Shown here in pieces: positions 3,958 to 64,000 of a DNA stretch of 64,000 bases. The DNA comes from a virus. Its lineage: Duplodnaviria; Caudoviricetes. The position numbers and the translations under genes were made by a program. Every line of letters begins with the position of its first letter. Within the stretch, counting starts at the first letter, position 1. The stretch is taken from IMG/VR virus record IMGVR_UViG_3300035498_000877, positions 96,001-160,000 of that record. The stretch is one strand, 5' to 3'. The notes beneath the pieces are model-generated. The model did not search any database, was not told where the DNA came from, and saw only the letters and a program-made list of their open reading frames with translations.

Positions 3958-5189
3958 TTATTCATCTTCTAATCTAGCAAATTTTGATAAATTATTTTTG
4001 AATAGTTGGACAATATTATCAGTTAGATGCTTTTTCTTAAATGGTATATTGTCCATAACCCATTCCATCATCTCATCATAATCATTACCAATCTCATGAG
4101 GATGTAATTTCATCCATATTACATATGTTTTGATTAATTTATTCAGATAATAATATTCGGCTTTAGTACACAATATAGTTGCATCACCAAAACGATATTC
4201 ATTAACTATTTCTTCATCTTCTGCTTGTCCAATAAATTCATCTTCATCATCTATTGTTTGCATTTCAACACCTAATGATTTAAGATAAACTTGTAATATT
4301 TCAGATGTTCTAGAAGTAAATGAATCAGGAATATTATATTTATTATCATCTGATAAAATTGCTTCATACATATATTTTCTACCATCTACTGAAGATCTAT
4401 ATAATGCAGTAATTAATGCAAAGTCTTCTGGGTTAGTTATGATCATGAAGTTGGGCATTTCATATTCGCCGAACCTGATTGGTTTGCTAGAATACCAAGA
4501 TTTACCTATCTTATTTTCATGAGATTTCTCTGGTAATCCCTCATCAGATATTGATCCAGATGAACGTACTGAGAATCCCTTTTCACCTGATTGTTTTAAC
4601 ATCATCATATACTGATATCCAATATTATCACTACCTATATAGATATCTCTACCCCACTTTGGTTTAGGTACAAATATATGATATGGAGTGAATATATCAG
4701 GATATTTTTCATATACCTGAATAATCTTATCTCTCCATGTTTTATAATCAGGCTCTGAACTATCTTCAAATGCTTCCCATCTGATATATAATGTATCATC
4801 AGTTCTTAATGTACCATCTCTATTCAAATTAATGGTACTATCAATAAATTTAACTTTCTCTCGGTCTGATAATCCATCATAAATATTTTCAAATTCTTTA
4901 GCTTCTTTTTCATTAAGTATTTTCATGATATCAAATAAGAATTCTTTACGTTCTTCATTTGTTTCCAAAGTGGCAGCATGTTTTCTAGCAATGTCTTGTA
5001 TGTATGTAACACTACCTTCAAGCATAACCATTGGAATAGTTCTATTAATAATAGCTAGAGGATTTGTAATCATATCTACTCTTTCGATAATACCTTTTGG
5101 ATGTTTAACTCCATATTTATCTACAGTATATTCCCTAGTAAGATATGGCATTTCTTCATCTGCTCTAATCTGACAAATCACTGTTTTGT
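3958..5189 (-). CDS. rpoB: RNA polymerase beta-like (C-terminal) subunit, exon 2; probably non-virion RNAP
   Basis: Splicing restores GRHG-N-KTVI; also DMITNPLAIINR, YMMMLKQ, RSSG, RFGEYE and LQVYLKSLG beta motifs. Spliced product about 794 aa. Confidence 0.88.
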
Positions 5190-18184: not shown

Positions 18185-19198
18185 ATGAGCAAGTATATTA
18201 AACTTCATACATTATCAGTTGGGTATAATATAGATTTAGGACAACAATTTTTTGATTTATTACATGAATATGATGAGTATATACATTCATATTTTTTCTC
18301 AGTTCATGAAAGATTTTATAACAATCCAAATCAACCTGAATTACAATATGATGATGTTATTGATAACTTAGCATTATTAAATACATATAACTATCCTGCT
18401 AATTTATTGTTCAATAATTATAATAATAAAAATTTTGAAATATATAATCATACTATTGATAAATTACTGAATGTTGGAATTAATATAAAAGCAGTAACTG
18501 TATTAGATCTTGATCTAGCAAAATTAATAAAGACTGATTTTCCACAATTAGAGATACATTCATCTGTTAGATATTTTGATACTTATTTAAGAAATTATAT
18601 GAATCTAACACCAGTTAATTTCATAGATCATATTAATGATTTCATTGGATTAATTGATGTGGTAAATCTATCTGGTACATATAGTATGTTTGATTATGAT
18701 ATTCAAAATAAATGCAGAGAGCTTGGTTTCAAAATTAAGTATATTACAAATGAAGGATGTATTAGAAATAGAGATCTGAATTATTCAAAATTTAAAGGAT
18801 ATGAAAATAATAAATGTTATAACCCTGATAAAGGATGCCAAATTTTATGCACAAATAAATTAGTTAAATCATATCCATGGTTAGAACTAGCAAGAGCTAA
18901 TTTATATAAAGAATCTATTCAATATATTGATTATGATATTCTAAAAATATCTGGTAGGAATATATCAGATATTAATAAAATCAGATCAATGTTGAATTAT
19001 TGGACATCTGATGATGGAACTAATTATATTGCAAACATATCAATGTATAATGATATTAATACATATAATATCTTTAAAGAATACATAAGGGATTCTGCAA
19101 CATGTAATGGGATGTGTAAAGAATGTAGAAAATGTGAGAAATATTATAGTAGGATGATTTTAAGTTCAACCAAATATGAAAATATATATCAAAGATAG
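18185..19198 (+). CDS. Peptidase U32-family (Fe-S, TIM-barrel) protein
   Basis: AVTVLD, LEIHSSV, ITNEGC, C...C...C, LKISGR; extra C-terminal CxxxCxxCxxC. Confidence 0.7.
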   Translation: MSKYIKLHTLSVGYNIDLGQQFFDLLHEYDEYIHSYFFSVHERFYNNPNQPELQYDDVIDNLALLNTYNYPANLLFNNYNNKNFEIYNHTIDKLLNVGINIKAVTVLDLDLAKLIKTDFPQLEIHSSVRYFDTYLRNYMNLTPVNFIDHINDFIGLIDVVNLSGTYSMFDYDIQNKCRELGFKIKYITNEGCIRNRDLNYSKFKGYENNKCYNPDKGCQILCTNKLVKSYPWLELARANLYKESIQYIDYDILKISGRNISDINKIRSMLNYWTSDDGTNYIANISMYNDINTYNIFKEYIRDSATCNGMCKECRKCEKYYSRMILSSTKYENIYQR

Positions 19199-19225
19199 TA
19201 GTGAGTAATTACTCACTACTATCTT
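19192..19225. terminator. Bidirectional terminator (perfect palindrome)
   Basis: aagatagtagtgagtaattactcactactatctt between convergent U32 and radical-SAM genes. Confidence 0.8.
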
Positions 19226-19232
19226 CTATAAT

Positions 19233-20351
19233 TTAATTTATTGATGGATCAATTGTGCATTTACCAACTTTAATCCTATGAACATGTTTTGTTTCTTTAT
19301 ATGATTGAATAATATTTGTTTTTGATACTTTATATATGAATTTATTTCTAATAAAATCAAATGTTGATAATATATCTTCTTGAATTGGTCCCAATCTACT
19401 GATAGACGAATGATTACAACCACCTAATCCCATTACTATATTATTTTTAACAATATCGATATTACTATCCATTACTACTTTTGAATTTATAAAGAAATCT
19501 CTATAGCTTCCATTTTTTAGTAAATGATAAGGCTCTTCACCATAATCAATTATGTCTCCAATATTAAGTGATAGAGATGAATCTTTTTCTAAAGAATATT
19601 CATCAGTACTTAACACAATATCTTTTAATAATTCTCTAAACTTAATTGATTTTAGATAATATTTATCAACTCTAAAATTAGGAATGGAACATATTTCATC
19701 AGGTTTTAATTCATTAATGCATTTATTCATATCATCAACATAAATATCCCATCCCATATCATTATCATAATTAAATAATGCAACTATATCAATATTTGCA
19801 TATCTATCATTTTCATGGAAAATATCAATAGCTTTCTTCAATTTATCAATATCATAGGGTATTCTATTTTGTTGTTTATTTGATTTTAAATCAAATGACT
19901 GAATACCAATACTCAATCGCTTAATATCCATATCATTAATTAAAAATGATAAAAATTCATCGGTTAAATCAATAGGATGAACTTCGAATGATATATTAGT
20001 CGTATTATGATATCCAGGAATATTATTTATTATTTCAATCAAAGCATCTTTATTCCATAATGATGGAGTACCTCCACCAAAATAAATTTGATCCATTTTA
20101 ACAGGAAATACATCTTTCATATTCTGAACTAAAGATACTACACTATCTTCATATATTTTTATTTTATCTTTATATTCATAATATTTGTTACTGCCAAATG
20201 CACAGAATTTACATATTGATCTGCAAAATGGAAAATCTATATATAATTCAAATTTGGTATCATCAGTTATTGGATATTCATTGAAATATCGTTTCCAATA
20301 TTCTATAAATTCACCATCATTATGTAAATAATAAGGATAATCTTTATTCAT
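19233..20351 (-). CDS. HemN-like (class C-type) radical SAM protein
   Basis: LYIDFPFCRSICKFC, IYFGGGTPS, FEVHP, RLSIGIQSF. Confidence 0.88.
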   Translation of the reverse strand: MNKDYPYYLHNDGEFIEYWKRYFNEYPITDDTKFELYIDFPFCRSICKFCAFGSNKYYEYKDKIKIYEDSVVSLVQNMKDVFPVKMDQIYFGGGTPSLWNKDALIEIINNIPGYHNTTNISFEVHPIDLTDEFLSFLINDMDIKRLSIGIQSFDLKSNKQQNRIPYDIDKLKKAIDIFHENDRYANIDIVALFNYDNDMGWDIYVDDMNKCINELKPDEICSIPNFRVDKYYLKSIKFRELLKDIVLSTDEYSLEKDSSLSLNIGDIIDYGEEPYHLLKNGSYRDFFINSKVVMDSNIDIVKNNIVMGLGGCNHSSISRLGPIQEDILSTFDFIRNKFIYKVSKTNIIQSYKETKHVHRIKVGKCTIDPSIN

Positions 20352-20354
20352 AAT

Positions 20355-21164
20355 TTATTCCTTTCTTACCATATTTGCAAACTCTTTTGGATATGAGCAA
20401 TATTTTTGTAATCTACATGGTCTGCATCTATTTATCATAGAACATTCATAACATTCTTTCGGAACATAAATTTGTAAACCATGTGGGCATGAATTCTTTA
20501 ATGATCCATCTGGGTATAACGTGTATATATTAGTACAATCATAACACCAGTTATTTATTCTATCAGCAATTTCTAACTCAATATTTGATTGCCATTTATT
20601 ATATAAATTACATAGCCATTGATCAGCCGATTTATAATATGATGGATCATTTTCTTCACCAACATAATGTTCAAATTTAATACACTTAACTCCCTTAATA
20701 TTCCATGTATCAACAAGTGATATAAATTCATCTATATTCATATTAAATAAATCTTTAGTTAATGTAATCATTATAGTATGAGATATTCCATTATCTGATA
20801 TAATCTTTCGATTTTTCATCCAGATATCATATTCTTTATCATTAAATCTTTTAGAATTCCAAGATGTTGATATACCATCGAATGTTTTATATATTTCTAT
20901 TAATCTATCATTTAGAATAAGTAAATTGGTTGATATACCATTTATCTTACTGATGCCATTAATATTATTAGATTCAATTATTTCATATAATCTATCAAGA
21001 TGTGTTGTAGCTTCTCCTCCAAAGATTGTTATTTGTCCATCAAATTTATTTAATTCATATAGGAATTTATCTTTATCATAAAATTCATCTCTATCTTTAG
21101 CAAAACAATGTGGACAATTTAAATTGCAGTGCCACGTGGGCACTGCATATAAATGTTTGTACAT
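20355..21164 (-). CDS. Radical SAM protein with C-terminal Cys cluster (SPASM/twitch-like)
   Basis: CNLNCPHC, FGGE, STN; C-terminal CYDC...C...CYEC...C..C...C. Confidence 0.85.
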   Translation of the reverse strand: MYKHLYAVPTWHCNLNCPHCFAKDRDEFYDKDKFLYELNKFDGQITIFGGEATTHLDRLYEIIESNNINGISKINGISTNLLILNDRLIEIYKTFDGISTSWNSKRFNDKEYDIWMKNRKIISDNGISHTIMITLTKDLFNMNIDEFISLVDTWNIKGVKCIKFEHYVGEENDPSYYKSADQWLCNLYNKWQSNIELEIADRINNWCYDCTNIYTLYPDGSLKNSCPHGLQIYVPKECYECSMINRCRPCRLQKYCSYPKEFANMVRKE

Positions 21165-21165
21165 G

Positions 21166-22146
21166 TTAAATCTCCTTTACCCATCCATATTTAATTAGCT
21201 TTGGTTTTAATTTAAGCATTTCCTCACAATGTTCTGGTGGATAATGTTTTTTCTGTGATTGACATCCATTGCATAATGCAAACAATTCACATGATGCACA
21301 TTTTTCATTGACATGATATGCAACTGGTGGATATTGTGGCACTGGTATTAAATTATTATCATTCTTATAATCTTTCAATATCTCAGGTTGTTCTTCACAG
21401 CATCCATAATAATGAAGCTTATCATCTGTATCAACATAGCAGCATCTAATTGATGATTTACATAACATGTTGATATTCAAATTACATGCATTGAAATTAT
21501 ATTTACTTGTATATATTTCATAATCACCTAATCCAGCATCTAATATTTCCATGTATTTAATAAACATCTTATATCTTGGATATGTGACTGTACATCTACC
21601 TTGTTCTGTCGCATTATTTATTCTAACTTTAGTATTTAATCTTTTTGCCAATTCAACTGTTTTTATTACAGTATCTTCATTACTCTCATCTATTACAGCA
21701 ATAAATGGTAATGTTTTATCTGAATTTATTTTTTCTCGAAATAAATTGAATATTTCAATAAACTTATCTTCAGTAAATGGAGTATCTTTATCCCATCTTC
21801 TACTTTCTCCATAATTAAAAGATGTTGTTATTCCAACATTATCATCATTGAATAGGTCAACCCATTTATCTGGATGATAATAGAATTCTTTAAGATTAGT
21901 TGTGATTGACATTGTTCCTTTTGGTGATTGTTCATGCATAATATCCAACAATTCCCAATAATAATCTGGATCGACTAATAATGGCTCTCCTCCACTCACA
22001 ACAATAGAATTTGGTTTTATTGTTCTAATTACATCTTTTATTTGTTCTGGAACACCGTTTGTTGGATGTTTAATATATAATGATCCAGCGCTACAAAATG
22101 TGCAATCAAAATTACATAAACCAGTTACTCTGATGATTAAATCCAT
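21166..22146 (-). CDS. Radical SAM/SPASM-type maturase
   Basis: CNFDCTFC, SGGEPLL, TTN; C-terminal CASCELFALCNGC...HC. Confidence 0.88.
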   Translation of the reverse strand: MDLIIRVTGLCNFDCTFCSAGSLYIKHPTNGVPEQIKDVIRTIKPNSIVVSGGEPLLVDPDYYWELLDIMHEQSPKGTMSITTNLKEFYYHPDKWVDLFNDDNVGITTSFNYGESRRWDKDTPFTEDKFIEIFNLFREKINSDKTLPFIAVIDESNEDTVIKTVELAKRLNTKVRINNATEQGRCTVTYPRYKMFIKYMEILDAGLGDYEIYTSKYNFNACNLNINMLCKSSIRCCYVDTDDKLHYYGCCEEQPEILKDYKNDNNLIPVPQYPPVAYHVNEKCASCELFALCNGCQSQKKHYPPEHCEEMLKLKPKLIKYGWVKEI

Positions 22147-24011: not shown

Positions 24012-24620
24012 TTACTTATAGCAACCATTATTACTATGGCAATTATGATGGCAATCAGAATGACACACTGAATGGCATATTATTATTTCTTTACTTGCTT
24101 GATGGTAACCACTATTAGCCCAAGCTGTATTTAATGCTGTATACAGATCATTCATTTTGGAAATACTCATTATATCATTTGCTTTGATTTTCCCATTTGT
24201 ATATGAAGAATTTAATGTTTTTATATATGAATCCGCAAATAATGCTCGTCCACTAGCTGAAGTCATTGTACTATATGAATGTGATCCATTTCTTGAAGAA
24301 TGATATAATCTTGTATATCTCCATGTTCCAACTCTTGTCAACATATGTGTACATTCAACCAAAAATGAGAGCATTCTTGCAGCATCAGGTTTTCCTTCAT
24401 GTACACCACTACTCTCCAAATAATTTTGAATCTGTTTTCTAAATATTGTCACATTTCCAAGTGCTTCATCTATCTCTTTATATTCAGTAGAACCATATGT
24501 ATCTACTGGCAAATTTGTGCTATGGATTAATGATGATGTAGTAATAACATCATAAACATTTGTCCAAAAACCATTTATAACATCATTATGCACTATTTTT
24601 TCCTTTGTTGCTAATGCCAT
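24012..24620 (-). CDS. Protein with C-terminal (CHxx)4 Cys/His tail; candidate radical-SAM substrate
   Basis: Ends ICHSVCHSDCHHNCHSNNGCYK; first gene of the radical-SAM run; ATG at 24620 (track uses TTG 24629). Confidence 0.75.
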   Translation of the reverse strand: MALATKEKIVHNDVINGFWTNVYDVITTSSLIHSTNLPVDTYGSTEYKEIDEALGNVTIFRKQIQNYLESSGVHEGKPDAARMLSFLVECTHMLTRVGTWRYTRLYHSSRNGSHSYSTMTSASGRALFADSYIKTLNSSYTNGKIKANDIMSISKMNDLYTALNTAWANSGYHQASKEIIICHSVCHSDCHHNCHSNNGCYK

Positions 24621-24653
24621 AATTACCAAATCCTTTCATTTTTTTTATTTTAA

Positions 24654-51138: not shown

Positions 51139-53157
51139 TTACGGATTTAAATTCTTATCTTCATACTCTTTGAAATATGTTGTTGGATCTACAGATGAAT
51201 CGGTTACTTGTGCAACTGAATCATAGTAAATATTATTAGGTACTGGATTAACTTCAGATACTTTTGTATATCTTACCCAGATATCATATACTGCATCTTT
51301 CCTATCTCCGATAGACATTGATTCAAAATATAATCCATCTGCTTTCAATGTCACAGTAGCATATGTGTGTCCTGTAATATTTGATCCAGCTAATATACTC
51401 CACTCACTTGGATCTGATTGATACTCCCATGAACCACCAGCTTGGATAATACGGCATGTTGATGAATTAATCATATCAGATATTTTTTCTCTTGATTGAG
51501 AATTAGGTAAATAAGTAATGATACCATAGAATCTCATTATATAAGAATTATCCAATAATGAAGTTTCAAATCCTGGATCAAGTCTTTGTGGATGTATTGT
51601 GTAATCCATTATTGTATCATAATAAATATTACCACCAGGAGTATTTGGATCTGGCCAACCTCCTATAAGAGGTCTTAAATAATCAGCTAATTCTTGTAAT
51701 TTAATCTCATGACTCATTTGTCCAGTCTCATCTTCTGTATTACCAATTACAGTACCCCATTCACATTTTATTTTATCAGGAATAACTGCCTTATCCTGAA
51801 TATGCCTAGTCTCTATAGAATCTGATTTAATGTGATGAGACCATACAGAATTATCCCATATTTCATTTTCTGTAACATAATCAAGATATGCAAGAGTTTT
51901 TAATCCAGGAATTCGTATATCATCCGATATAGTTGTAAGATCATTATTGATATAATATTTAATAGAACCATTTACGGTTCCAGGAAGTATCTTAATTGCT
52001 GTAACATAATTAAAGCTAGCTAAATATTCTTTTGTGCAATATCCTTTAATCAGTTCATTAAATGCAGTATCTAATGATCCATTTGTATTTAATATATCTT
52101 TAACTATATTTACCATATTTAAACTCATACCATCAGTAGAGTCATTAAAGTATTTATTATCAAACTTTGAATATACTCCCATATTAGATATATCCCAAGA
52201 ATATGTTCCATCCTGATTCAATCTACAAATAGCTACTGCATTATATGAATCATGTGTCTTACGAACAAAATATGCTTTCCTATAATATTTAGCTGATGCT
52301 CTAGGAAGATCTACTAAATCTTCAACAACTTGGATATCGTCAATCCAATCTGATATATGCTGTGCAGTACTATCATATGATGTAATTCTATTCTCAACAT
52401 ATTCAACTACAGCTCTTGTAGATGGATAGTGTGAACTATCATTATTTTCAGAATCAGAAAATGCTGAAACTTTATTTGATAAATTTTCCTTTGTTTTAAA
52501 TATATCATAGTGAGCATTATTATCGTCCATATGATTATCCATTGTATCAAGAACCGAACTAACTCTATCATCAAGTGTATTATTAATCTCATCCACTAAA
52601 TCCCATAATTTAACAAGATTTCTACGTATATCTGTATGAGTAGTATCAGCTGTTGAATAATTATGTTTAGCTATTAAATCTGATATTGTATCTGATACGA
52701 CATTATTAATATCCAATTGATCTAATGTAACTGAATGTGGATTATTCGTATTATTGATATGATTATATAATTCTTCCAGATTTACTTTGAAATCATAATT
52801 ACTAATCATATTATTGACTGCTTGTTGTTGTGGACCAGATAATGGTTTATCAATATCAGCAGTATTATCAACTCTTCCAAGACCAACATCTTTAGCAGCT
52901 AATGTAACATCACCCTGTTGATTATTAACTGAAGTTACTGGGAATACAATTGTACTTTGTCCACCAGTTAGAATATCTATTTTCAAATCAGCAAGTATTT
53001 GACGAAGATTTTTATTAGTAGCAGTCTGATCATCAAATACTTGGTCTAATATCGTACTAGGATATATTTGATCAACTTTTGATGAACGTGGGTTATTCTC
53101 ATCTTCCAGAACAAATAAATCTCTCGGCAAATTATTCACAATTCTATTATTAGCCAT
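51139..53157 (-). CDS. Tail-fibre-like structural protein (N-terminus related to 30020-33799)
   Basis: IYPSTILDQV, VTSVNNQQGDV, VGLGRVDNTADIDKPLS, NPHSVT, YPSTRAV. Confidence 0.68.
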   Translation of the reverse strand: MANNRIVNNLPRDLFVLEDENNPRSSKVDQIYPSTILDQVFDDQTATNKNLRQILADLKIDILTGGQSTIVFPVTSVNNQQGDVTLAAKDVGLGRVDNTADIDKPLSGPQQQAVNNMISNYDFKVNLEELYNHINNTNNPHSVTLDQLDINNVVSDTISDLIAKHNYSTADTTHTDIRRNLVKLWDLVDEINNTLDDRVSSVLDTMDNHMDDNNAHYDIFKTKENLSNKVSAFSDSENNDSSHYPSTRAVVEYVENRITSYDSTAQHISDWIDDIQVVEDLVDLPRASAKYYRKAYFVRKTHDSYNAVAICRLNQDGTYSWDISNMGVYSKFDNKYFNDSTDGMSLNMVNIVKDILNTNGSLDTAFNELIKGYCTKEYLASFNYVTAIKILPGTVNGSIKYYINNDLTTISDDIRIPGLKTLAYLDYVTENEIWDNSVWSHHIKSDSIETRHIQDKAVIPDKIKCEWGTVIGNTEDETGQMSHEIKLQELADYLRPLIGGWPDPNTPGGNIYYDTIMDYTIHPQRLDPGFETSLLDNSYIMRFYGIITYLPNSQSREKISDMINSSTCRIIQAGGSWEYQSDPSEWSILAGSNITGHTYATVTLKADGLYFESMSIGDRKDAVYDIWVRYTKVSEVNPVPNNIYYDSVAQVTDSSVDPTTYFKEYEDKNLNP

Positions 53158-53266
53158 AATTAACCTCCTATTTTATTTTTATTTCATTATTAATTTCGTT
53201 CTAATTCGAATATATATTCTCAATATGCAAATAAACAAATCTAAATAATAAAAATGAAAGGAGAAT

Positions 53267-53572
53267 ATGTTTATGCGTGCAGGAATTAATAACATTATTA
53301 TGGAAGATGAAAGTGATATTTATAATTATATTACTAAAGGGATTCTTCCCTCTGGAAAGAACAGAGATATTTTGATTAACAAAATTGCAAGTGGAGAGTA
53401 TAATGATATTCTTGAAAATGCAGTTCAGACAAAAAAGAATGTAGAAGTGATTTGTAAAAATCGCAAGAAAAATACTATTGCGGCTATTATTGCAACAACA
53501 AGTGCATTTATATTAGGCACCAGTTATGGAACTAAGAAAACTGAACACAAACAGAAAAAGTTAGAAAAATGA
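53267..53572 (+). CDS. Small protein with C-terminal hydrophobic segment
   Basis: AAGGAG RBS; upstream TATATATT at 53211. Confidence 0.65.
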   Translation: MFMRAGINNIIMEDESDIYNYITKGILPSGKNRDILINKIASGEYNDILENAVQTKKNVEVICKNRKKNTIAAIIATTSAFILGTSYGTKKTEHKQKKLEK

Positions 53573-53578
53573 TAAAAA

Positions 53579-53609
53579 ATATAAGGGGGTAAGCACAACC
53601 CCCTTATAT
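53579..53609. terminator. Terminator hairpin
   Basis: atataaggggg-taagcacaa-cccccttatat. Confidence 0.75.
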
Positions 53610-53840
53610 AATTTGACTGTATATAATAGCATACTAGAGTATACTAATTTTTTGGAAAATAAATGTTGTAATTTTCATGCAATATACTTTACTTTACACA
53701 TTTTATAGTTACATTATATCAGCTTCTTATAGCTCACATGTCTATCCTATCTGATACTTTCAATATGAAATTGTCGAAATTGTTTTGGATTTTGATTGGT
53801 CTTTTTAAGAATAATATAGTTGGGTTTATGAATACTAATC

Positions 53841-54404
53841 TTAAATTACTTTTCCATTTGCATCTTTACGAACTTTTGTCTGTAAGTAAGAAGGTACTGG
53901 ACTCTTAGCTCTAATCTGAACTGAATCCTTTGATGTAGTTGTCACTGTTCCCAATGACTCTTGGGTCTTTGGATCTCTAACCTTAGATGTTTTAGTCTTA
54001 CCAGGAACATCTGCAAGATAAATAGATCCACCAACTGTTGGCTGCTGTGGAAGATCAAACTTCTTACCACATTTAATCTGTTCCATAACTATGTATGGAA
54101 TAGCTTCAGAGATACCGCTTGTGACGATTTCTGCTGTATCGAGAACTGCTTCCTCAGACTTCTGTGGAAACTTAGCTTTCTCGATTGTCTTCTTGATATC
54201 AGATCTAATCAAATCTGATATTGATACTTCACCATTTTGTTGTCCATCCTTGCCGTATGTCTTGATCTTGAATGAAGTATCATTAGCTAATGCTGAAGTC
54301 AAATCTGAAAAACCAGACTTAGAGAATGATCCCTTGCCAGTCATTATGTCATTGATCTTGTCTTCACCTTTAGCCTTTGATAGTACATCGTTCACCATCT
54401 TCAT
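53841..54404 (-). CDS. Divergent HU/IHF-like DNA-binding protein
   Basis: GKKFDLP...KTKTSKVRDPKTQESLGTV...QIRAK resembles the HU arm (RNPKTGE); ATG 54404 after AAGGAGG. Confidence 0.55.
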   Translation of the reverse strand: MKMVNDVLSKAKGEDKINDIMTGKGSFSKSGFSDLTSALANDTSFKIKTYGKDGQQNGEVSISDLIRSDIKKTIEKAKFPQKSEEAVLDTAEIVTSGISEAIPYIVMEQIKCGKKFDLPQQPTVGGSIYLADVPGKTKTSKVRDPKTQESLGTVTTTSKDSVQIRAKSPVPSYLQTKVRKDANGKVI

Positions 54405-54543
54405 GTCAATGGCCCTCCTTATTAAATTTTTAAAAATCTTATATGTCAGGATTTTTACAATATAAGTAGTATACAAAATACTTTTAATACTGGATCTATC
54501 CCGATATATTCAATGAAATAATATATAATTAAAAAACATATAT

Positions 54544-54567
54544 GAGTTGAGGGAATCAACCCTCAAC
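54544..54567. terminator. Hairpin/terminator
   Basis: gttgaggg-aatcaa-ccctcaac with extended flanking pairing. Confidence 0.6.
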
Positions 54568-54627
54568 CCACATATGTTGTTCAAAGAAGGCGCTTTATAC
54601 AAAAATGAGTAACCGGCAAATTTATTA

Positions 54628-55062
54628 TCAAATATTGTTGTTACCTGTATTACCATTATTACTATTATTACCATTATGAATATGTGTAGACATTTCTATT
54701 ACAATCTCATATTCTCTAGTAATGTTAGCAATTTCAGAATTTATCCTATCGAATTTCTCTTTTAATTCTTTTGATTTCTTATAAAGCTCTTGATTTAAAG
54801 TCGTACCACTCAACTCTTCATAATTAGATAATAGTGTCATATTTGTTTCTAGTGTCAATATTATCATATCATATATGATATTCTCTCGTTCTTTTTCCTT
54901 ATCAGCAAGTTTTTGTTTTAAGTCTCTTTCTCTTTCAAGGAATGTCGTTTGTTCATCAATCTTATTAATTACGTTATCTTGTTTCTTTTGTATAAGAAGT
55001 GTTATAATGGAAAAAACACCTGTGATTATAGATATAATGACTGTTGATAAATATTTATCCAT
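54628..55062 (-). CDS. Single-TM coiled-coil protein (possibly lysis-related)
   Basis: N-terminal TM followed by a long coiled coil. Confidence 0.6.
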   Translation of the reverse strand: MDKYLSTVIISIITGVFSIITLLIQKKQDNVINKIDEQTTFLERERDLKQKLADKEKERENIIYDMIILTLETNMTLLSNYEELSGTTLNQELYKKSKELKEKFDRINSEIANITREYEIVIEMSTHIHNGNNSNNGNTGNNNI

Positions 55063-55113
55063 CTTTATGCCCCCCCTATCAGAATCTAAATATTAATGAA
55101 TACAAATACTTAC

Positions 55114-55707
55114 CTAAATCCTTCGTATAGTATTATATGTTTTTAAAGTAGTCTTCTGATACTTTAATACTACCAAATTAAATAATGTAAATATCAATAT
55201 TAATATAATATACCCAATAAAACTTATTAGCCATAGATTAGTAACTTTATGGTATGGCAGCCATATTATAGCAATAGCATCCTCATCATAAACAGTAATA
55301 TGTTGAAAATATACAATTTGGTCAACATTACCATTCTCATATGTACAATAACCTCTATCATTATCCAGAAGTATATTATCAAGAATTTCAAAATCTTTTA
55401 TATCATTTGGAGAAATATTATAATCTTTTCCACATATCCTTGTAATCATATTGAAATCAGTTGAATATACTTCTGCCATCTTTGATATATTTGGATTATA
55501 TAGTTGCAATTGTTCAATTATTTGATTCTCTTCATCTTCATCCAATGTTGATGATGAATCAATAGGTAAACATAAATCTTTACTATCTTCCATCTGATTA
55601 ATTTTTTTATCGCAGATATTAATCATTAAAATTACAAATGCTGCAATTATGATGATTGATATTATTTCCGGATTAAATAATAATCGTTTGGCCTTCTCAA
55701 TTTTCAT
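55114..55707 (-). CDS. Two-TM membrane protein with extracytoplasmic domain
   Basis: N- and C-terminal hydrophobic helices. Confidence 0.65.
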   Translation of the reverse strand: MKIEKAKRLLFNPEIISIIIIAAFVILMINICDKKINQMEDSKDLCLPIDSSSTLDEDEENQIIEQLQLYNPNISKMAEVYSTDFNMITRICGKDYNISPNDIKDFEILDNILLDNDRGYCTYENGNVDQIVYFQHITVYDEDAIAIIWLPYHKVTNLWLISFIGYIILILIFTLFNLVVLKYQKTTLKTYNTIRRI

Positions 55708-55773
55708 TTAATCATCCCCTTTTATATTAAAAAGAACTTAATATATTACTACCTTACTACATTGTTTGAGAAA

Positions 55774-55803
55774 AATAGGTGAGGTACTGTACCTCAACCT
55801 ATT
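55774..55803 (-). terminator. Intrinsic terminator
   Basis: aatagg-tgaggtac-t-gtacctca-a-cctatt. Confidence 0.7.
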
Positions 55804-55807
55804 AAAA

Positions 55808-56794
55808 TTATCTAGCATATAATCTATAGACAGCTTCAATTGCATCTCCTTCAGATAACTGGATAGATGGTCTAGTAAAATGCGTGAATATTCTGCATGC
55901 TTCCCACATATTTTTTGATGAATTATACCATCCAGATACAAGGGCAAATTCATTCACTCTAGGTGATGCCCCAGTAGTTGTAAAGAATCCTCTTCCATCA
56001 TGTTCATCAACAGATATATTCATTTCTACATATGATTCAATTGAATTAGATGATGTGGATGAGAATACTGTATCATCAACTACTGATAATTCATCTTCAT
56101 TATCAGTAACCCATGCATGTACAATATGCGGAGCTGGATCGTCAAATGTTTTAATATAATATGAAGTAACAGGATCAGTAGTAGCTGATGCTTGATATGT
56201 TGTACTTTGTCCAAAATATTTAGATGCATCTATAGTAGTTCCATCATTGGACATTCTAAAAGGTATAGCTCTATAAAGAGTTCTATTCTTATAATCAGGA
56301 GCTATAGCTGTCATATTATCTTCTTTTGCTGCTCCATCACCCATCATAAATCCAAAGATATAATTTAATGCTGATATATTAACTCCTTGATTTATTGAAA
56401 GAGTTCCATCAGTTGTAGAACATTCTGCATTATAGTAGATTGATTTATATTCCTCTCTAGGTACACCAATCTTCATCAATGGAGCTTCATCATTTAGATC
56501 TCCAACTCTTAAAGTTGTTTCCTCATCTAATCCAATATTGAATAGCTTATCAAATACAAATTGATATGCTCCAATTGGAACTATGTTATGATCCTTATAA
56601 TAAACTTCATCAAATTTGGTAATAAATGTTTTATTTCCAAATGGATCAGTATAAGGTACTAAGTGTTTACCTCTACCAAATATTACTTCACCTCTTAATC
56701 CACCCAATCCACCATGCTCTGATGCATGTACTTTATCTATCATCTGTATACGTTTAGTTTTAGATCTATTATTTGTGTATTTATTTTTTCTCAT
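55808..56794 (-). CDS. Putative virion structural protein
   Basis: HNIVP, GDG, PFR, NEFAL, FTHFT and YRLY pattern resembling myophage tail-collar/baseplate proteins. Confidence 0.5.
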   Translation of the reverse strand: MRKNKYTNNRSKTKRIQMIDKVHASEHGGLGGLRGEVIFGRGKHLVPYTDPFGNKTFITKFDEVYYKDHNIVPIGAYQFVFDKLFNIGLDEETTLRVGDLNDEAPLMKIGVPREEYKSIYYNAECSTTDGTLSINQGVNISALNYIFGFMMGDGAAKEDNMTAIAPDYKNRTLYRAIPFRMSNDGTTIDASKYFGQSTTYQASATTDPVTSYYIKTFDDPAPHIVHAWVTDNEDELSVVDDTVFSSTSSNSIESYVEMNISVDEHDGRGFFTTTGASPRVNEFALVSGWYNSSKNMWEACRIFTHFTRPSIQLSEGDAIEAVYRLYAR

Positions 56795-61461: not shown

Positions 61462-61495
61462 AAGAAAGAGGGTTTAATAGCCCTCTTTTCTTTTT
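61461..61495 (+). terminator. Intrinsic terminator
   Basis: aaagaggg-tttaatag-ccctcttt plus T-run. Confidence 0.75.
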
Positions 61496-61553
61496 TATTT
61501 GTTTTTCTGAACGAGATGATAACATAGAAAAATAAATTACGGAGGTGAATACA

Positions 61554-64000
61554 GTGAATAGAGATCTTTATTCTAATGACGAATTTACTAATATGAAAAA
61601 AGCCATTAATGAAGAAATGTTACGACGTGGTACATATAGATGGTGGAACCCTTTAACTACTCCTGCAATTGGTGAAGATAAATCTTCTCCCATAATTCTT
61701 GATGAAAATGCAGATAAGATAGAAGTAAATGATAAGACATATACAATCAATAATCCATCTGAAGGATCAATAGAGCCTACTAGAAATATACAATACCCAG
61801 CTCATGGAGAAAATCCTTCTGGAGAAGATCCTAATTATGAAGTTAATTCTCCATCCACTTCAGCAGCTGCTATTAATGTAGATGAGTTTAAAAACTATCT
61901 AGTTGGTCTATCGAAAATCAAAGATATTAATCTTTTTTATGGAAGAGATGAATGCAATTATCTAGCATATAGAGATCCTCAAGGTATACAAGATGTAATA
62001 GAAGATGCCCAGTCAGATGTATTAAATAAACCATTGGCTGAATCAGATAATCCATATATCAAGAATGATCCTAATGGAAAAGTTGCTGATAGGGTAAATC
62101 CATTATATCCAGTATCAGATACATTGGTACAATATCCAAATGAAGATGGTCAATATGTAATGCCATCTGGTGAATATGATGGAGAAGAATTAAAACAATA
62201 TGAGAATATTGGACCTACTAATTTCTATGATGATTATGGAGCACAAGCTGGTGATAGTAATTTCCATCCATATAATAGATATGTATCATTACATACAAGA
62301 AGAGATTGGAATGATCAAAATGATTATAGACAAACTATATCTACATCTAAATTAGAAGGAGGAAAATCATCTATTAGATTTGGTACTAATCCAAGAAATC
62401 CCCAGATGGGTGATCAATATGGATCAAGACCAGTATTTGGTGGAAAAGTAGGATCATGTAATATTGCATGTACTGGTATGTGTTACATGACATGTGATAA
62501 TCAATGCTCAGAATCATGTTCAACAACATGCTGGGCTAGATGTGGAAACTCATGTACAATGTCATGCGGAAATAGTTGTACTGGATGTAGTTCACAATGT
62601 ATGAATACATGTAAAACTAAGTGCGAAGATGCTACAGGATATTCATGTGTTAAATCAGGTGCAATGACAGTAAAGATTGAAACTACAGGTGGAGAAATTG
62701 GAATACCTGCTGAGAATCATATATCATCAACATATCATACATGTGATGGATGTTCATTCAGTTGCCAATTCTATCCGAATAAGAAAACAGAATGTTGGGA
62801 TGCTGGATGCATGGGCAAATGTTTTGTAACATGTTTGAATTCATGCAGTGATTCATGTTTTGGTGGATGTATAAATAATAATCCTTCTGATACAAATGAT
62901 ACCACATATAAAGTAGGTAAAGGAAGAGGATGTTCTTCTGGATGTACATTAAACTGTATTGGAACTTGTAAAGATTCTTGTGTTGGTTATTGCATCACAG
63001 GATGTTTCATGTCATGTATAGCATCATGTGAAGATAATTGTACATTTAGATGTAGTACAATATGTGGAAATGGATGTAATCAAGGATGCACTCAAGGATG
63101 TACAGGGTGTCATTATGAATGTACTGGAGCATGTACTGGACTTTCAGATAGTAGAACATGTGTAGGATGTGGATCTGTTGGCGGATGCACAACTAACTGT
63201 ATGATGGATTGTAATGGAAATTGTATGGCTAGTGGATGTAGATCTATATGTGGTACAGAATCATCTGGAGCTTGTTCATCAAATTGTAGATTGAATTGTA
63301 CAGAATCATCATGTACATCAATGTGTTCAGAAGCATGTAGTACTCAATGTAATACATGCGTAAATACATGTGGACATCAATGTGGAATGTGTAGTTCTTT
63401 ATGTTCTACAGGCTGTGAGTCAGAATGTAATATAACATGTACAGGAGCATGCGAAAATTCATGTACTTCGAATTGTGTAACATCTTGTTCATCAGAATGC
63501 GGTGGATGTTCTAATTTATGCTATTCATGTACAGGAATGTGTATAGGAGTATGTAGTGTTAAATGTGAAGTAACATGTTCTAACTGTGCAGGTCTATGCT
63601 CATGGTGGTGTGATACTCAATGTAATCAAACATGTTTCTCAGATTGTATCAGTAGATGTATCAATAGTTGTTCTGGATCATGTGCAACTTATTTAACATC
63701 AGAAGCTAAAACTACTAAAGGACCTGAAAGAAAACCAACTGCACAAGGATGGAGATATCCAAATCCTTCTAATAGATGGGAAGAAAGAGAATCATTTAAA
63801 TTATTCCATGATGTAGATCCATATAAACGACCTGAAATAATTAAAGAAATATTACCTATTACTATCACAATGGTAAAAGTTAATAAATATGTAATACTTG
63901 AAATGAGTCTTGATAATGTTAGTGAAAATCTTGAGATAATAACAGATATTACAGATACAGATATTATTACTACCAGAGGATCTATTAAGAAGAGCGATAT
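61554..64000 (+). CDS. Giant CxxxC-repeat protein (3'-partial, >815 aa; absent from ORF track)
   Basis: GTG start after GGAGGTG; frame open to window end (MNRDLYSNDEFTNMKKAINEEMLRRG...); about 88 Cys between 62457 and 63683. Confidence 0.9.
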   Translation, partial: MNRDLYSNDEFTNMKKAINEEMLRRGTYRWWNPLTTPAIGEDKSSPIILDENADKIEVNDKTYTINNPSEGSIEPTRNIQYPAHGENPSGEDPNYEVNSPSTSAAAINVDEFKNYLVGLSKIKDINLFYGRDECNYLAYRDPQGIQDVIEDAQSDVLNKPLAESDNPYIKNDPNGKVADRVNPLYPVSDTLVQYPNEDGQYVMPSGEYDGEELKQYENIGPTNFYDDYGAQAGDSNFHPYNRYVSLHTRRDWNDQNDYRQTISTSKLEGGKSSIRFGTNPRNPQMGDQYGSRPVFGGKVGSCNIACTGMCYMTCDNQCSESCSTTCWARCGNSCTMSCGNSCTGCSSQCMNTCKTKCEDATGYSCVKSGAMTVKIETTGGEIGIPAENHISSTYHTCDGCSFSCQFYPNKKTECWDAGCMGKCFVTCLNSCSDSCFGGCINNNPSDTNDTTYKVGKGRGCSSGCTLNCIGTCKDSCVGYCITGCFMSCIASCEDNCTFRCSTICGNGCNQGCTQGCTGCHYECTGACTGLSDSRTCVGCGSVGGCTTNCMMDCNGNCMASGCRSICGTESSGACSSNCRLNCTESSCTSMCSEACSTQCNTCVNTCGHQCGMCSSLCSTGCESECNITCTGACENSCTSNCVTSCSSECGGCSNLCYSCTGMCIGVCSVKCEVTCSNCAGLCSWWCDTQCNQTCFSDCISRCINSCSGSCATYLTSEAKTTKGPERKPTAQGWRYPNPSNRWEERESFKLFHDVDPYKRPEIIKEILPITITMVKVNKYVILEMSLDNVSENLEIITDITDTDIITTRGSIKKSD

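Follow-up and report, generated by a model that had tools for sequence, protein, structure and literature searches.

Why does a phage encode a protein in which, over some 400 residues, cysteine recurs at nearly every fourth position, and which enzyme might act on these cysteines? The question is raised by an open reading frame (ORF) that begins at position 61554 of a 64,000-nucleotide stretch of DNA, hereafter the window, corresponding to positions 96,001 to 160,000 of the IMG/VR record IMGVR_UViG_3300035498_000877, a virus of the Caudoviricetes. An earlier description made from the letters of the window (the sequence-only reading) had noticed this unannotated ORF and proposed that its product is a large, internally embedded target of the CXXX-repeat type for radical S-adenosylmethionine (SAM) enzymes, or else a poly-metal or Fe-S rod. 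The gene and its product are referred to below as the target gene and the target. Our analysis of gene content and families indicates that the target is very probably the substrate of a TIGR04115-like enzyme encoded elsewhere in the same genome. The fuller reading, in which this substrate of a CXXX-repeat-family maturase would be stapled by thioethers and would be a virion part belonging to the tail-fibre apparatus, appears to us reasonably likely.

A 991-residue protein with an embedded cysteine domain

The source genome consists of a single contig of 289,234 bp (29.8% G+C), rated 100% complete by CheckV, of which the window occupies G000:C1:96001-160000. The frame is open without a stop from 61545 to the end of the window, as the sequence-only reading had reported for the ORF from 61554, and the stop was located at G000:C1:160529, 529 nt beyond the window. 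The target gene, identified as an ORF, lies on the plus strand (61554..64000, and on to G000:C1:160529); in a search of 5.8 billion proteins it has 169 relatives at E ≤ 0.001. Its product is long but large only, and not giant as first described: 991 amino acids, laid out as an N-terminal domain, an 88-cysteine domain with CxxxC spacing and a variable C-terminal beta domain. The GTG at 61554 is likely the true start, since a Shine-Dalgarno motif GGAGG read from the sequence (61541..61545, plus strand) lies 8 nt ahead of it and the homologue consensus begins MNxxLYSN (alignment A1, 108 sequences); an alternative GTG at 61545 falls within this ribosome-binding site. Residue numbers given here are those of P0002, which is counted from 61545, and the number in the true protein is the P0002 number minus 3.

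The target contains 89 cysteines, 88 of which are found within residues 305-713, a domain of 409 residues (62457..63683, plus strand; 21.5% cysteine) where they form four blocks separated by cysteine-poor linkers at residues 361-399, 443-462 and 533-538. Successive cysteines of the domain are four positions apart in 68 cases, three apart in nine and five apart in three, the remainder being a few linkers. Shuffling of the same 409 residues (20,000 times) gave 9.1 ± 2.8 CxxxC steps and never more than 25, whereas 68 are observed, and no other ORF of at least 150 amino acids in the genome, where cysteine accounts for 1.2% of residues, has more than one such step. Serine (14%), threonine (11%), glycine (11%) and asparagine (7%) are the other residues counted in the domain, with just three prolines. 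These figures agree with the sequence-only reading, which had noted about 88 cysteines in CxxxC periodicity over about 410 residues and ordinary sequence on either side; both flanking parts are folded with confidence by AlphaFold2. Its statement that the DNA is not a tandem repeat also held. Tandem Repeats Finder retrieved only four arrays of 27-54 nt from the target DNA, with a period of 12 (three arrays) or 27 (one array) and 2.0-2.6 copies, which places the periodicity at the level of the protein instead of in a recent duplication of DNA. A recent tandem expansion of the DNA was dropped as an explanation on account of these short, low-copy arrays.

Such a composition is relevant to a rival explanation, in which the domain would be a metal-thiolate module (for example with about 22 Zn(Cys)4 sites, with Cu(I)-thiolate clusters like those of the Csp copper-storage proteins, or with Fe-S clusters) and the radical-SAM enzyme would modify few or none of its cysteines. 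CxxxC and CxxC spacings are known in metal sites, and the high cysteine content, the small polar spacers and the lack of proline among them count in favour of such a module. Yet histidine or aspartate partners are almost absent, a strict period of four over 68 steps is unlike known cluster-binding motifs, and no metallothionein, ferredoxin or Csp family of Pfam or NCBIfam matched the target. We consider the metal-thiolate module unlikely, a judgement to which the gene linkage reported below also contributes.

Each cysteine of the domain is conserved

Identity to the target ranges from 44 to 63% among the 120 matches listed, many of which lie on contigs of 260-298 kb, and tblastn of the target against 50,697 GenBank phage records gave no match; a cultured representative of this clade was not found. 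Nearly all homologues hold 85-92 cysteines with the same spectrum of gaps. When conservation was computed for each cysteine over 121 homologues, 82 of the 88 were conserved at 95% or more and 86 at 90% or more, and most are invariant in alignment A1. The three spacer positions vary, with a mean column entropy of 1.2-1.5 bits and about half of their residues being Gly, Ala, Ser or Thr; proline was found at these positions in none of the homologues. That 88 cysteines stay fixed while the spacers drift, without proline, fits a constraint on each thiol. Judged from these alignments, the region is a domain of fixed layout, in which each of 88 thiols is constrained by itself, and not a repeat of variable copy number, and its cysteine lattice is under strong purifying selection. 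The suggestion of the sequence-only reading that the spacing of the cysteines is itself selected is thereby borne out, the cysteines being fixed position by position where the spacers vary.

The conserved positions and the even number of cysteines would also suit a disulfide-bonded module, of the minicollagen or keratin-associated kind, hardened by oxidation after lysis in an enzyme-free manner. CxxxC runs do make disulfide networks in nematocyst minicollagens. But the relatives were recovered from samples of the anoxic gut, conditions under which disulfides are poorly formed and poorly maintained, no oxidoreductase is linked to the target gene, and a disulfide-bonded module would leave unexplained the conserved co-occurrence with a dedicated radical-SAM/SPASM maturase. 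This explanation is, in our estimation, improbable. The setting is more favourable to metal sites: one homologue is labelled as belonging to a Ruminococcus flavefaciens metagenome-assembled genome, and if the hosts are gut anaerobes, as this label makes likely, their reducing cytoplasm would favour a metal-thiolate module.

Some homologues (P0007, P0009, P0049, P0056, P0060, P0061, P0068, P0078, P0092, P0100, P0113, P0122 and P0140) bear inteins of a single lineage, of about 350-363 amino acids with a LAGLIDADG domain, beginning CF[KR]AGT and ending VHN, which is not present in the copy of this window. The inteins were found at seven sites of the cysteine domain, always directly before the cysteine corresponding to C309, C313, C325, C499, C616, C655 or C670. 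It is uncommon for one intein family to occupy many positions of a single repeat domain; the pattern suggests homing or an ectopic spread aided by the recurrence of the cysteine context. In two loci the target is divided into two consecutive ORFs, each with a CxxxC run (L052:12721-15690, 557 and 421 amino acids; L054, identical to L020, 6445-9803, 723 and 387 amino acids), which may represent a real split, a frameshift or an assembly error.

A TIGR04115-like radical-SAM/SPASM maturase

The enzyme proposed here as the partner of the target is P0139, a radical-SAM/SPASM maturase of 746 amino acids encoded outside the window on the minus strand (G000:C1:69564-71804). Among the NCBIfam families it fits TIGR04115 best ('radical SAM peptide maturase, CXXX-repeat target family'; E 1.7e-98, 330 bits), the match covering model positions 5-359 out of 359. 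The runner-up was the PapB ranthipeptide maturase family with 141 bits, while CcpM, HxsB, SCIFF and other maturases remained below 90 bits. Three intein-free orthologues of 602-606 amino acids scored 363, 343 and 329 bits relative to a TIGR04115 cut-off of 350, and this family leads the next one by about 190 bits in every maturase scored. On these scores, the maturase clade straddles the edge of TIGR04115 and stands far from any other family. The nearest solved structure is that of CteB (5WGG/5WHY, E 3e-13).

A mini-intein of 148 amino acids (residues 196-343) lies inside the CxxxCxxC motif of P0139, and its removal restores CSLNCTYC. The Radical_SAM match in Pfam, 20.9 bits, is below its cut-off because the intein interrupts it. 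Seven cysteines of the SPASM region (582, 600, 650, 653, 659, 662 and 681) are invariant in a 12-sequence alignment (A2), and the enzyme carries an extra N-terminal extension of about 190 residues. Complex prediction of this extension (residues 1-192) with the N-terminal domain of the target (residues 1-310) gave a score of 0.01, which is neither for nor against binding. No match to the accessory family TIGR04116 (CXXX_rpt_assoc) was obtained in G000-G003, and the control genomes gave none either. Among the maturases, inteins occupy two sites three residues apart within CxxxCxxC, as mini-inteins or with an endonuclease; the L020 maturase has a third intein, in the SPASM region, and some orthologues, with lengths of 602-606 amino acids, are intein-free.

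Linkage of maturase and target genes

When related loci were compared with this genome, the P0139 orthologue was directly upstream of the target in seven of nine. More broadly, a maturase orthologue was present in the upstream flank of the target at 12 of 15 target loci, and 19 of the 24 IMG/VR loci containing a maturase relative had an ORF with at least eight CxxxC steps within 4 kb. A TIGR04115-like gene was detected in all five related genomes tested (E 1e-89 to 1e-101). The exceptions to linkage that could be checked (G000, G001 and G004) contain both genes, unlinked. The match of P0139 to TIGR04115, the 12 linked loci and the five genomes thus support the proposal of the sequence-only reading that the target is a large, embedded CXXX-repeat-type substrate. 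That reading had also suggested extending the contig to look for radical-SAM genes adjacent to the target: the maturase was found in the genome, but 85.7 kb off, and beside the target there is none, tail-fibre genes being present instead. Against the metal-thiolate module, we note the tight and lineage-spanning linkage of the target to a maturase family that is defined by CXXX-repeat targets.

A second lineage was encountered on a 114,644-bp ENA contig with a T4-type portal (L035:10001-15040). There, a protein of 1679 amino acids has Flg_new adhesin repeats followed at the C-terminus by about 600 residues of nearly perfect CxxxC sequence (156 cysteines, 150 gaps of four), and an intein-bearing TIGR04115-like radical-SAM enzyme (346 bits) is encoded two genes upstream. 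Going by these sequences, this pairing is a repetition of the enzyme-target association in an independent lineage. The same profile search returned many further large proteins (600-1800 amino acids) with 60-170 cysteines, almost all in CxxxC spacing.

Shorter proteins of this kind occur in the Salmonella phage SPN3US (NC_027402.1, about 143,400-144,230), in which two ORFs of about 130 amino acids (L038:3938-4336 and 4350-4751) have a cysteine-free N-terminal part and 20-21 cysteines in CxxxC/CxxC spacing, and are located between a 'virion structural protein' gene and two radical-SAM genes. Both are missing from the annotation, where gp100 (ACQ60_gp100), overlapping the second ORF in a different frame, seems to have been called in error. 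Short CxxxC proteins beside radical-SAM genes in cultured jumbo phages such as SPN3US, and an enzyme family catalogued for peptide maturation, are what could be advanced for a polyprotein precursor, from which proteolysis would release small secreted cysteine-rich peptides, that is, true RiPPs (peptides made by ribosomes and modified after translation), bacteriocin-like or used in signalling. In the target, though, one fixed architecture is conserved that takes in the 88 cysteine positions, the linkers and both flanks, and it has no cleavage motif that recurs. The gene is linked to neither a protease nor an exporter, and in the second lineage the cysteine domain is fused to adhesin repeats. 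A peptide precursor is highly improbable in view of these features.

The radical-SAM cluster within the window

The sequence-only reading had pointed to enzymes at 19233-22146 as the partners of the target. In the corresponding rival explanation, the radical-SAM/U32 cluster at 18185-22146 would modify, in one scheme, both the target and a CHxx-tailed protein at 24012-24629. The cluster does comprise a HemN-like radical-SAM gene and two SPASM/twitch-like ones, which are short and have weak HxsC/twitch-type matches only in NCBIfam. Facing them is a U32-like gene (18185-19198, plus strand) that belongs to no NCBIfam family. An orthologue of the latter (39% identity) sits between the TIGR04115-like maturase and the cysteine-ladder gene in G003 (L018:8950-9900), which can be counted for the cluster, and this gene perhaps serves as an accessory on occasion.

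The relative G001, a complete genome of 289 kb with terminal repeats, goes far towards refuting a role of the cluster. It has the target (52% identity) and a TIGR04115-like enzyme, and contains neither a homologue of the 326-residue radical-SAM protein nor a U32-like gene; it has only one small radical-SAM gene and no other peptide-type one. Since G001 keeps target and maturase without the cluster, the target does not depend on the genes at 19233-22146, none of which matched a CXXX-repeat family. As obligatory partner, the U32-like gene was dropped because it is absent from G001. The assignment of these enzymes to the target was thus not upheld, nor was the single phage-wide scheme that would have included the tail at 24012-24620, and we regard the involvement of the cluster as most unlikely. 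The case holds a lesson for annotation: an intein can mask a partner enzyme whose gene is also unlinked, and reliance on neighbourhood alone led here to the wrong radical-SAM genes.

Terminal domains and tail-gene surroundings

The N-terminal domain of the target (P0002 4-304; 61554..62456, plus strand) is conserved, the frequency of the commonest residue averaging about 0.67-0.70, and contains a single, non-conserved cysteine. Modelled alone with AlphaFold2, it had a mean pLDDT (the score for the local distance difference test as predicted by the program) of 81. It may be a leader-like docking domain or an anchor. The C-terminal region (P0002 714-994), the beginning of which is at 63684..64000 (plus strand), consists of beta-rich domains with pLDDT values of 80-95 at residues 770-985. 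This is the least conserved part (0.44-0.46, gap fractions 0.25-0.56); its beta domains differ in length and sequence among homologues and are absent from those of about 750 amino acids. In the full-length model built with alignment A1, residues from about 10 to 310 and from about 730 to 985 were folded confidently and the cysteine domain had a pLDDT of about 30. That the apo domain is unfolded in AlphaFold2 is a further point for the metal-thiolate module.

Fold searches with the full model (Foldseek against PDB, BFVD, VIA wide) gave nothing above Z 4.7 or E 0.03, and those with the N-terminal domain (VIA wide, Atlas) nothing above Z 4.9 or a template modelling score of 0.31. An ESM Atlas feature search with the target gave no usable match. 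Searches of Pfam, NCBIfam and PHROGs with the whole target and its three parts yielded nothing meaningful, the only hits being phrog_6085 (E 0.004) and a 'faint' PF27846. The CXXX-repeat target models, to which the sequence-only reading had drawn attention, do match the target but below threshold only: a search of the genome with TIGR04114 gave five sub-threshold repeat matches, the best at 18 bits for a cut-off of 20, and all of them fell within the cysteine domain of the target.

On the 3′ side of the target, the genome encodes a tail fibre of 1387 amino acids (phrog_892, E 2.7e-45), small fibre-like proteins and a tail protein (phrog_5302, E 8e-55). In relatives, the orthologue of the 1387-residue fibre gene is found within about 5 kb 3′ of the maturase-target cassette, and directly upstream of the pair is the orthologue of a 672-residue tail-fibre-like gene, which in this genome is inverted and 4.4 kb upstream of the target (51139..53157, minus strand; PHROG minor tail and tail fibre families, E 1.5e-10 to 1e-7). 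This gene is part of a five-gene block at 51139-56794 (minus strand; 672, 187, 144, 197 and 328 amino acids) which in relatives lies ahead of the maturase-target pair and shares its strand. The inverted block and the relocated maturase point to a rearrangement which broke up the cassette in this genome. A conserved N-terminal domain, a rigid-looking middle, a variable or optional distal domain and, in the other lineage, fusion to adhesin repeats fit a fibre-like component of the virion, and we lean, by a little, towards the target being a virion protein associated with the tail.

Upstream, a hairpin resembling an intrinsic terminator (61464..61489, plus strand; 11-bp stem followed by a T run; one site compared with 0.2 expected in shuffles) closes the preceding gene, so that the target appears to open a new transcription unit. 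Just beyond the window, an acidic ORF of 89 amino acids (L001:5501-5770, genome 160501-160770) shares 29 nt with the 3′ end of the target and is followed by a bidirectional terminator-like hairpin (L001:5773-5801). With hairpins on both sides and overlapping ORFs, the target gene and the small ORF seem to form a unit of two genes. The position of the small ORF is kept in relatives (91-96 amino acids, about 30% identity), and neither it nor the relatives' versions matched any family; its product may assist the target, as a chaperone or as another helper. The idea of a PqqD-like or TIGR04116 protein in this role was dropped, given the lack of a family match and the identity of only about 30% among relatives.

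Proposed modification of the cysteine domain

We propose that the P0139 precursor is spliced, which would restore the CSLNCTYC motif, and that the mature enzyme, with SAM and three [4Fe-4S] clusters, would modify thiols of the 88-cysteine domain. The likeliest products would be intramolecular thioether (S-C) cross-links to nearby residues, a suggestion drawn from the chemistry of the relatives PapB, CteB and CrpC. The 409 residues would thereby be turned into a covalently stapled module resisting reduction and proteolysis, the conserved N-terminal domain serving as an anchor and/or as an enzyme-docking 'leader' and the variable C-terminal beta domains forming the distal part. By analogy with these enzymes, thioether chemistry on the target has, in our view, slightly better than even chances.

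Several observations weigh against substrate, chemistry and location as proposed here. The maturase and target genes are separated by 85.7 kb in this genome and are on opposite strands, and co-regulation is not evident. With 330 bits, P0139 falls short of the curated cut-off of 350 for TIGR04115. On the side of the target, hmmscan reported no family at E ≤ 10, TIGR04114 and TIGR04117 were not reached at threshold, and the precomputed match to PF27846 is only 'faint'. The chemistry would be extrapolated from relatives that score far lower (141 bits at most); Asp and Glu, the acceptors of PapB, account for 29 of the 409 residues, and column analysis of the homologues found no spacer position conserved as an obvious acceptor. 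As to the virion, neither terminal domain resembles a known virion protein in PHROG, Pfam or fold searches (no Z ≥ 5), and non-structural genes, for instance that of a 5′-3′ exonuclease, are interspersed around the loci of the relatives.

A stronger version of the thioether proposal can be formulated, in which the maturase would use most or all of the 88 thiols to set thioether staples within the chain, one at every fourth residue, as an unbroken ladder. The outcome would be a reduction- and protease-proof rod in the tail-fibre apparatus of phages whose gut habitat is anoxic and rich in proteases. The inteins would then acquire a meaning: with one lineage spreading among seven cysteine sites of the target, and with three intein sites in the enzyme, they would indicate that the pair cannot be dispensed with. 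We view this continuous ladder as conceivable but doubtful. If it were true, no known protein would be more densely cross-linked by an enzyme than the target, and the building of a virus particle by RiPP-type radical chemistry would have its first example.

Should the less demanding proposal of a thioether-stapled tail component hold, phages would build a part of the virion by radical chemistry, which would be a new type of post-translational modification in virus assembly, and, in the target, nature would have supplied a long protein rod held by covalent staples. The TIGR04115 family would gain a testable substrate and a biological role. Stapling might explain how gut phage particles endure reducing, protease-rich conditions, and the enzyme-target pair would be of practical interest for hyper-stable protein scaffolds.

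Comparison with known systems

Radical-SAM thioether chemistry is known from small antimicrobial peptides. As regards RiPPs of the ranthipeptide and sactipeptide classes, the target, with its 991 residues, is plainly outside the size of their short precursors. The closest catalogued system is the CXXX-repeat radical-SAM system, comprising the TIGR04115 maturase, the TIGR04114, TIGR04117 and PF27846 targets and the TIGR04116 and TIGR04119 accessories, which to our knowledge has been defined in silico only; in the literature, we found no paper on TIGR04115 CXXX-repeat chemistry, on phage versions of it or on SPASM enzymes acting on phage structural proteins. The system described here shares with it the best family of the enzyme, a cysteine at every fourth residue of the target and, in most relatives, adjacent genes. 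It differs in that the catalogued targets are short (an 18-position repeat for TIGR04114, 98 positions for TIGR04117), whereas ours is a three-domain protein with an embedded, position-specific lattice of 88 cysteines which reaches the target models below threshold only. The phage enzyme has, in addition, an N-terminal extension and an intein, and the pair is set among tail genes, with a separation of 86 kb in this genome.

Among characterised enzymes, CteB makes the thioethers of SCIFF and is the nearest structure to P0139, while PapB represents the second-best family (141-155 bits). PapB joins Cys to Asp or Glu in Cys-X3-Asp/Glu motifs, four residues on (PMC9413430), a register equal to that of CxxxC. 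In contrast to the target, the substrates of PapB (freyrasin) and CteB are short leader-core peptides with at most six cross-links and acidic or Thr acceptors. The target is about 20 times larger than such peptides, contains few Asp and Glu residues and has a further cysteine at i+4.

Thioether formation by a radical-SAM enzyme on a protein-sized substrate was shown only in 2026, with CrpC, a SPASM enzyme of Methanococcus voltae (TIGR04463) that puts ranthionine cross-links on the cysteine-rich protein CrpA (PMC13692751). The resemblance lies in a SPASM radical-SAM enzyme and a protein-sized, repetitive, cysteine-rich substrate; the cysteine-free N-terminal part of CrpA aids engagement of the enzyme, and its cysteine region has low AlphaFold confidence, as in the target. 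On the other hand, P0139 reaches only about 45 bits with TIGR04463, CrpA is made of 17-residue repeats with C-X-X-Q/D motifs in place of a lattice of period 4, and the system is archaeal and cellular.

A last comparison is with structural proteins. Metal or disulfide bonds stabilise the His-Fe needle of T4 gp37 and the CxxxC domains of minicollagens, respectively. Like these, the target would have a ligand or cross-link residue recurring along a probable fibre module, and CxxxC sequences provide the hardening in minicollagens. There is no similarity to them in sequence or fold, and the radical enzyme linked to the target implies, if our reading is right, that in place of coordination or oxidation its stabilisation would be achieved by covalent S-C chemistry.

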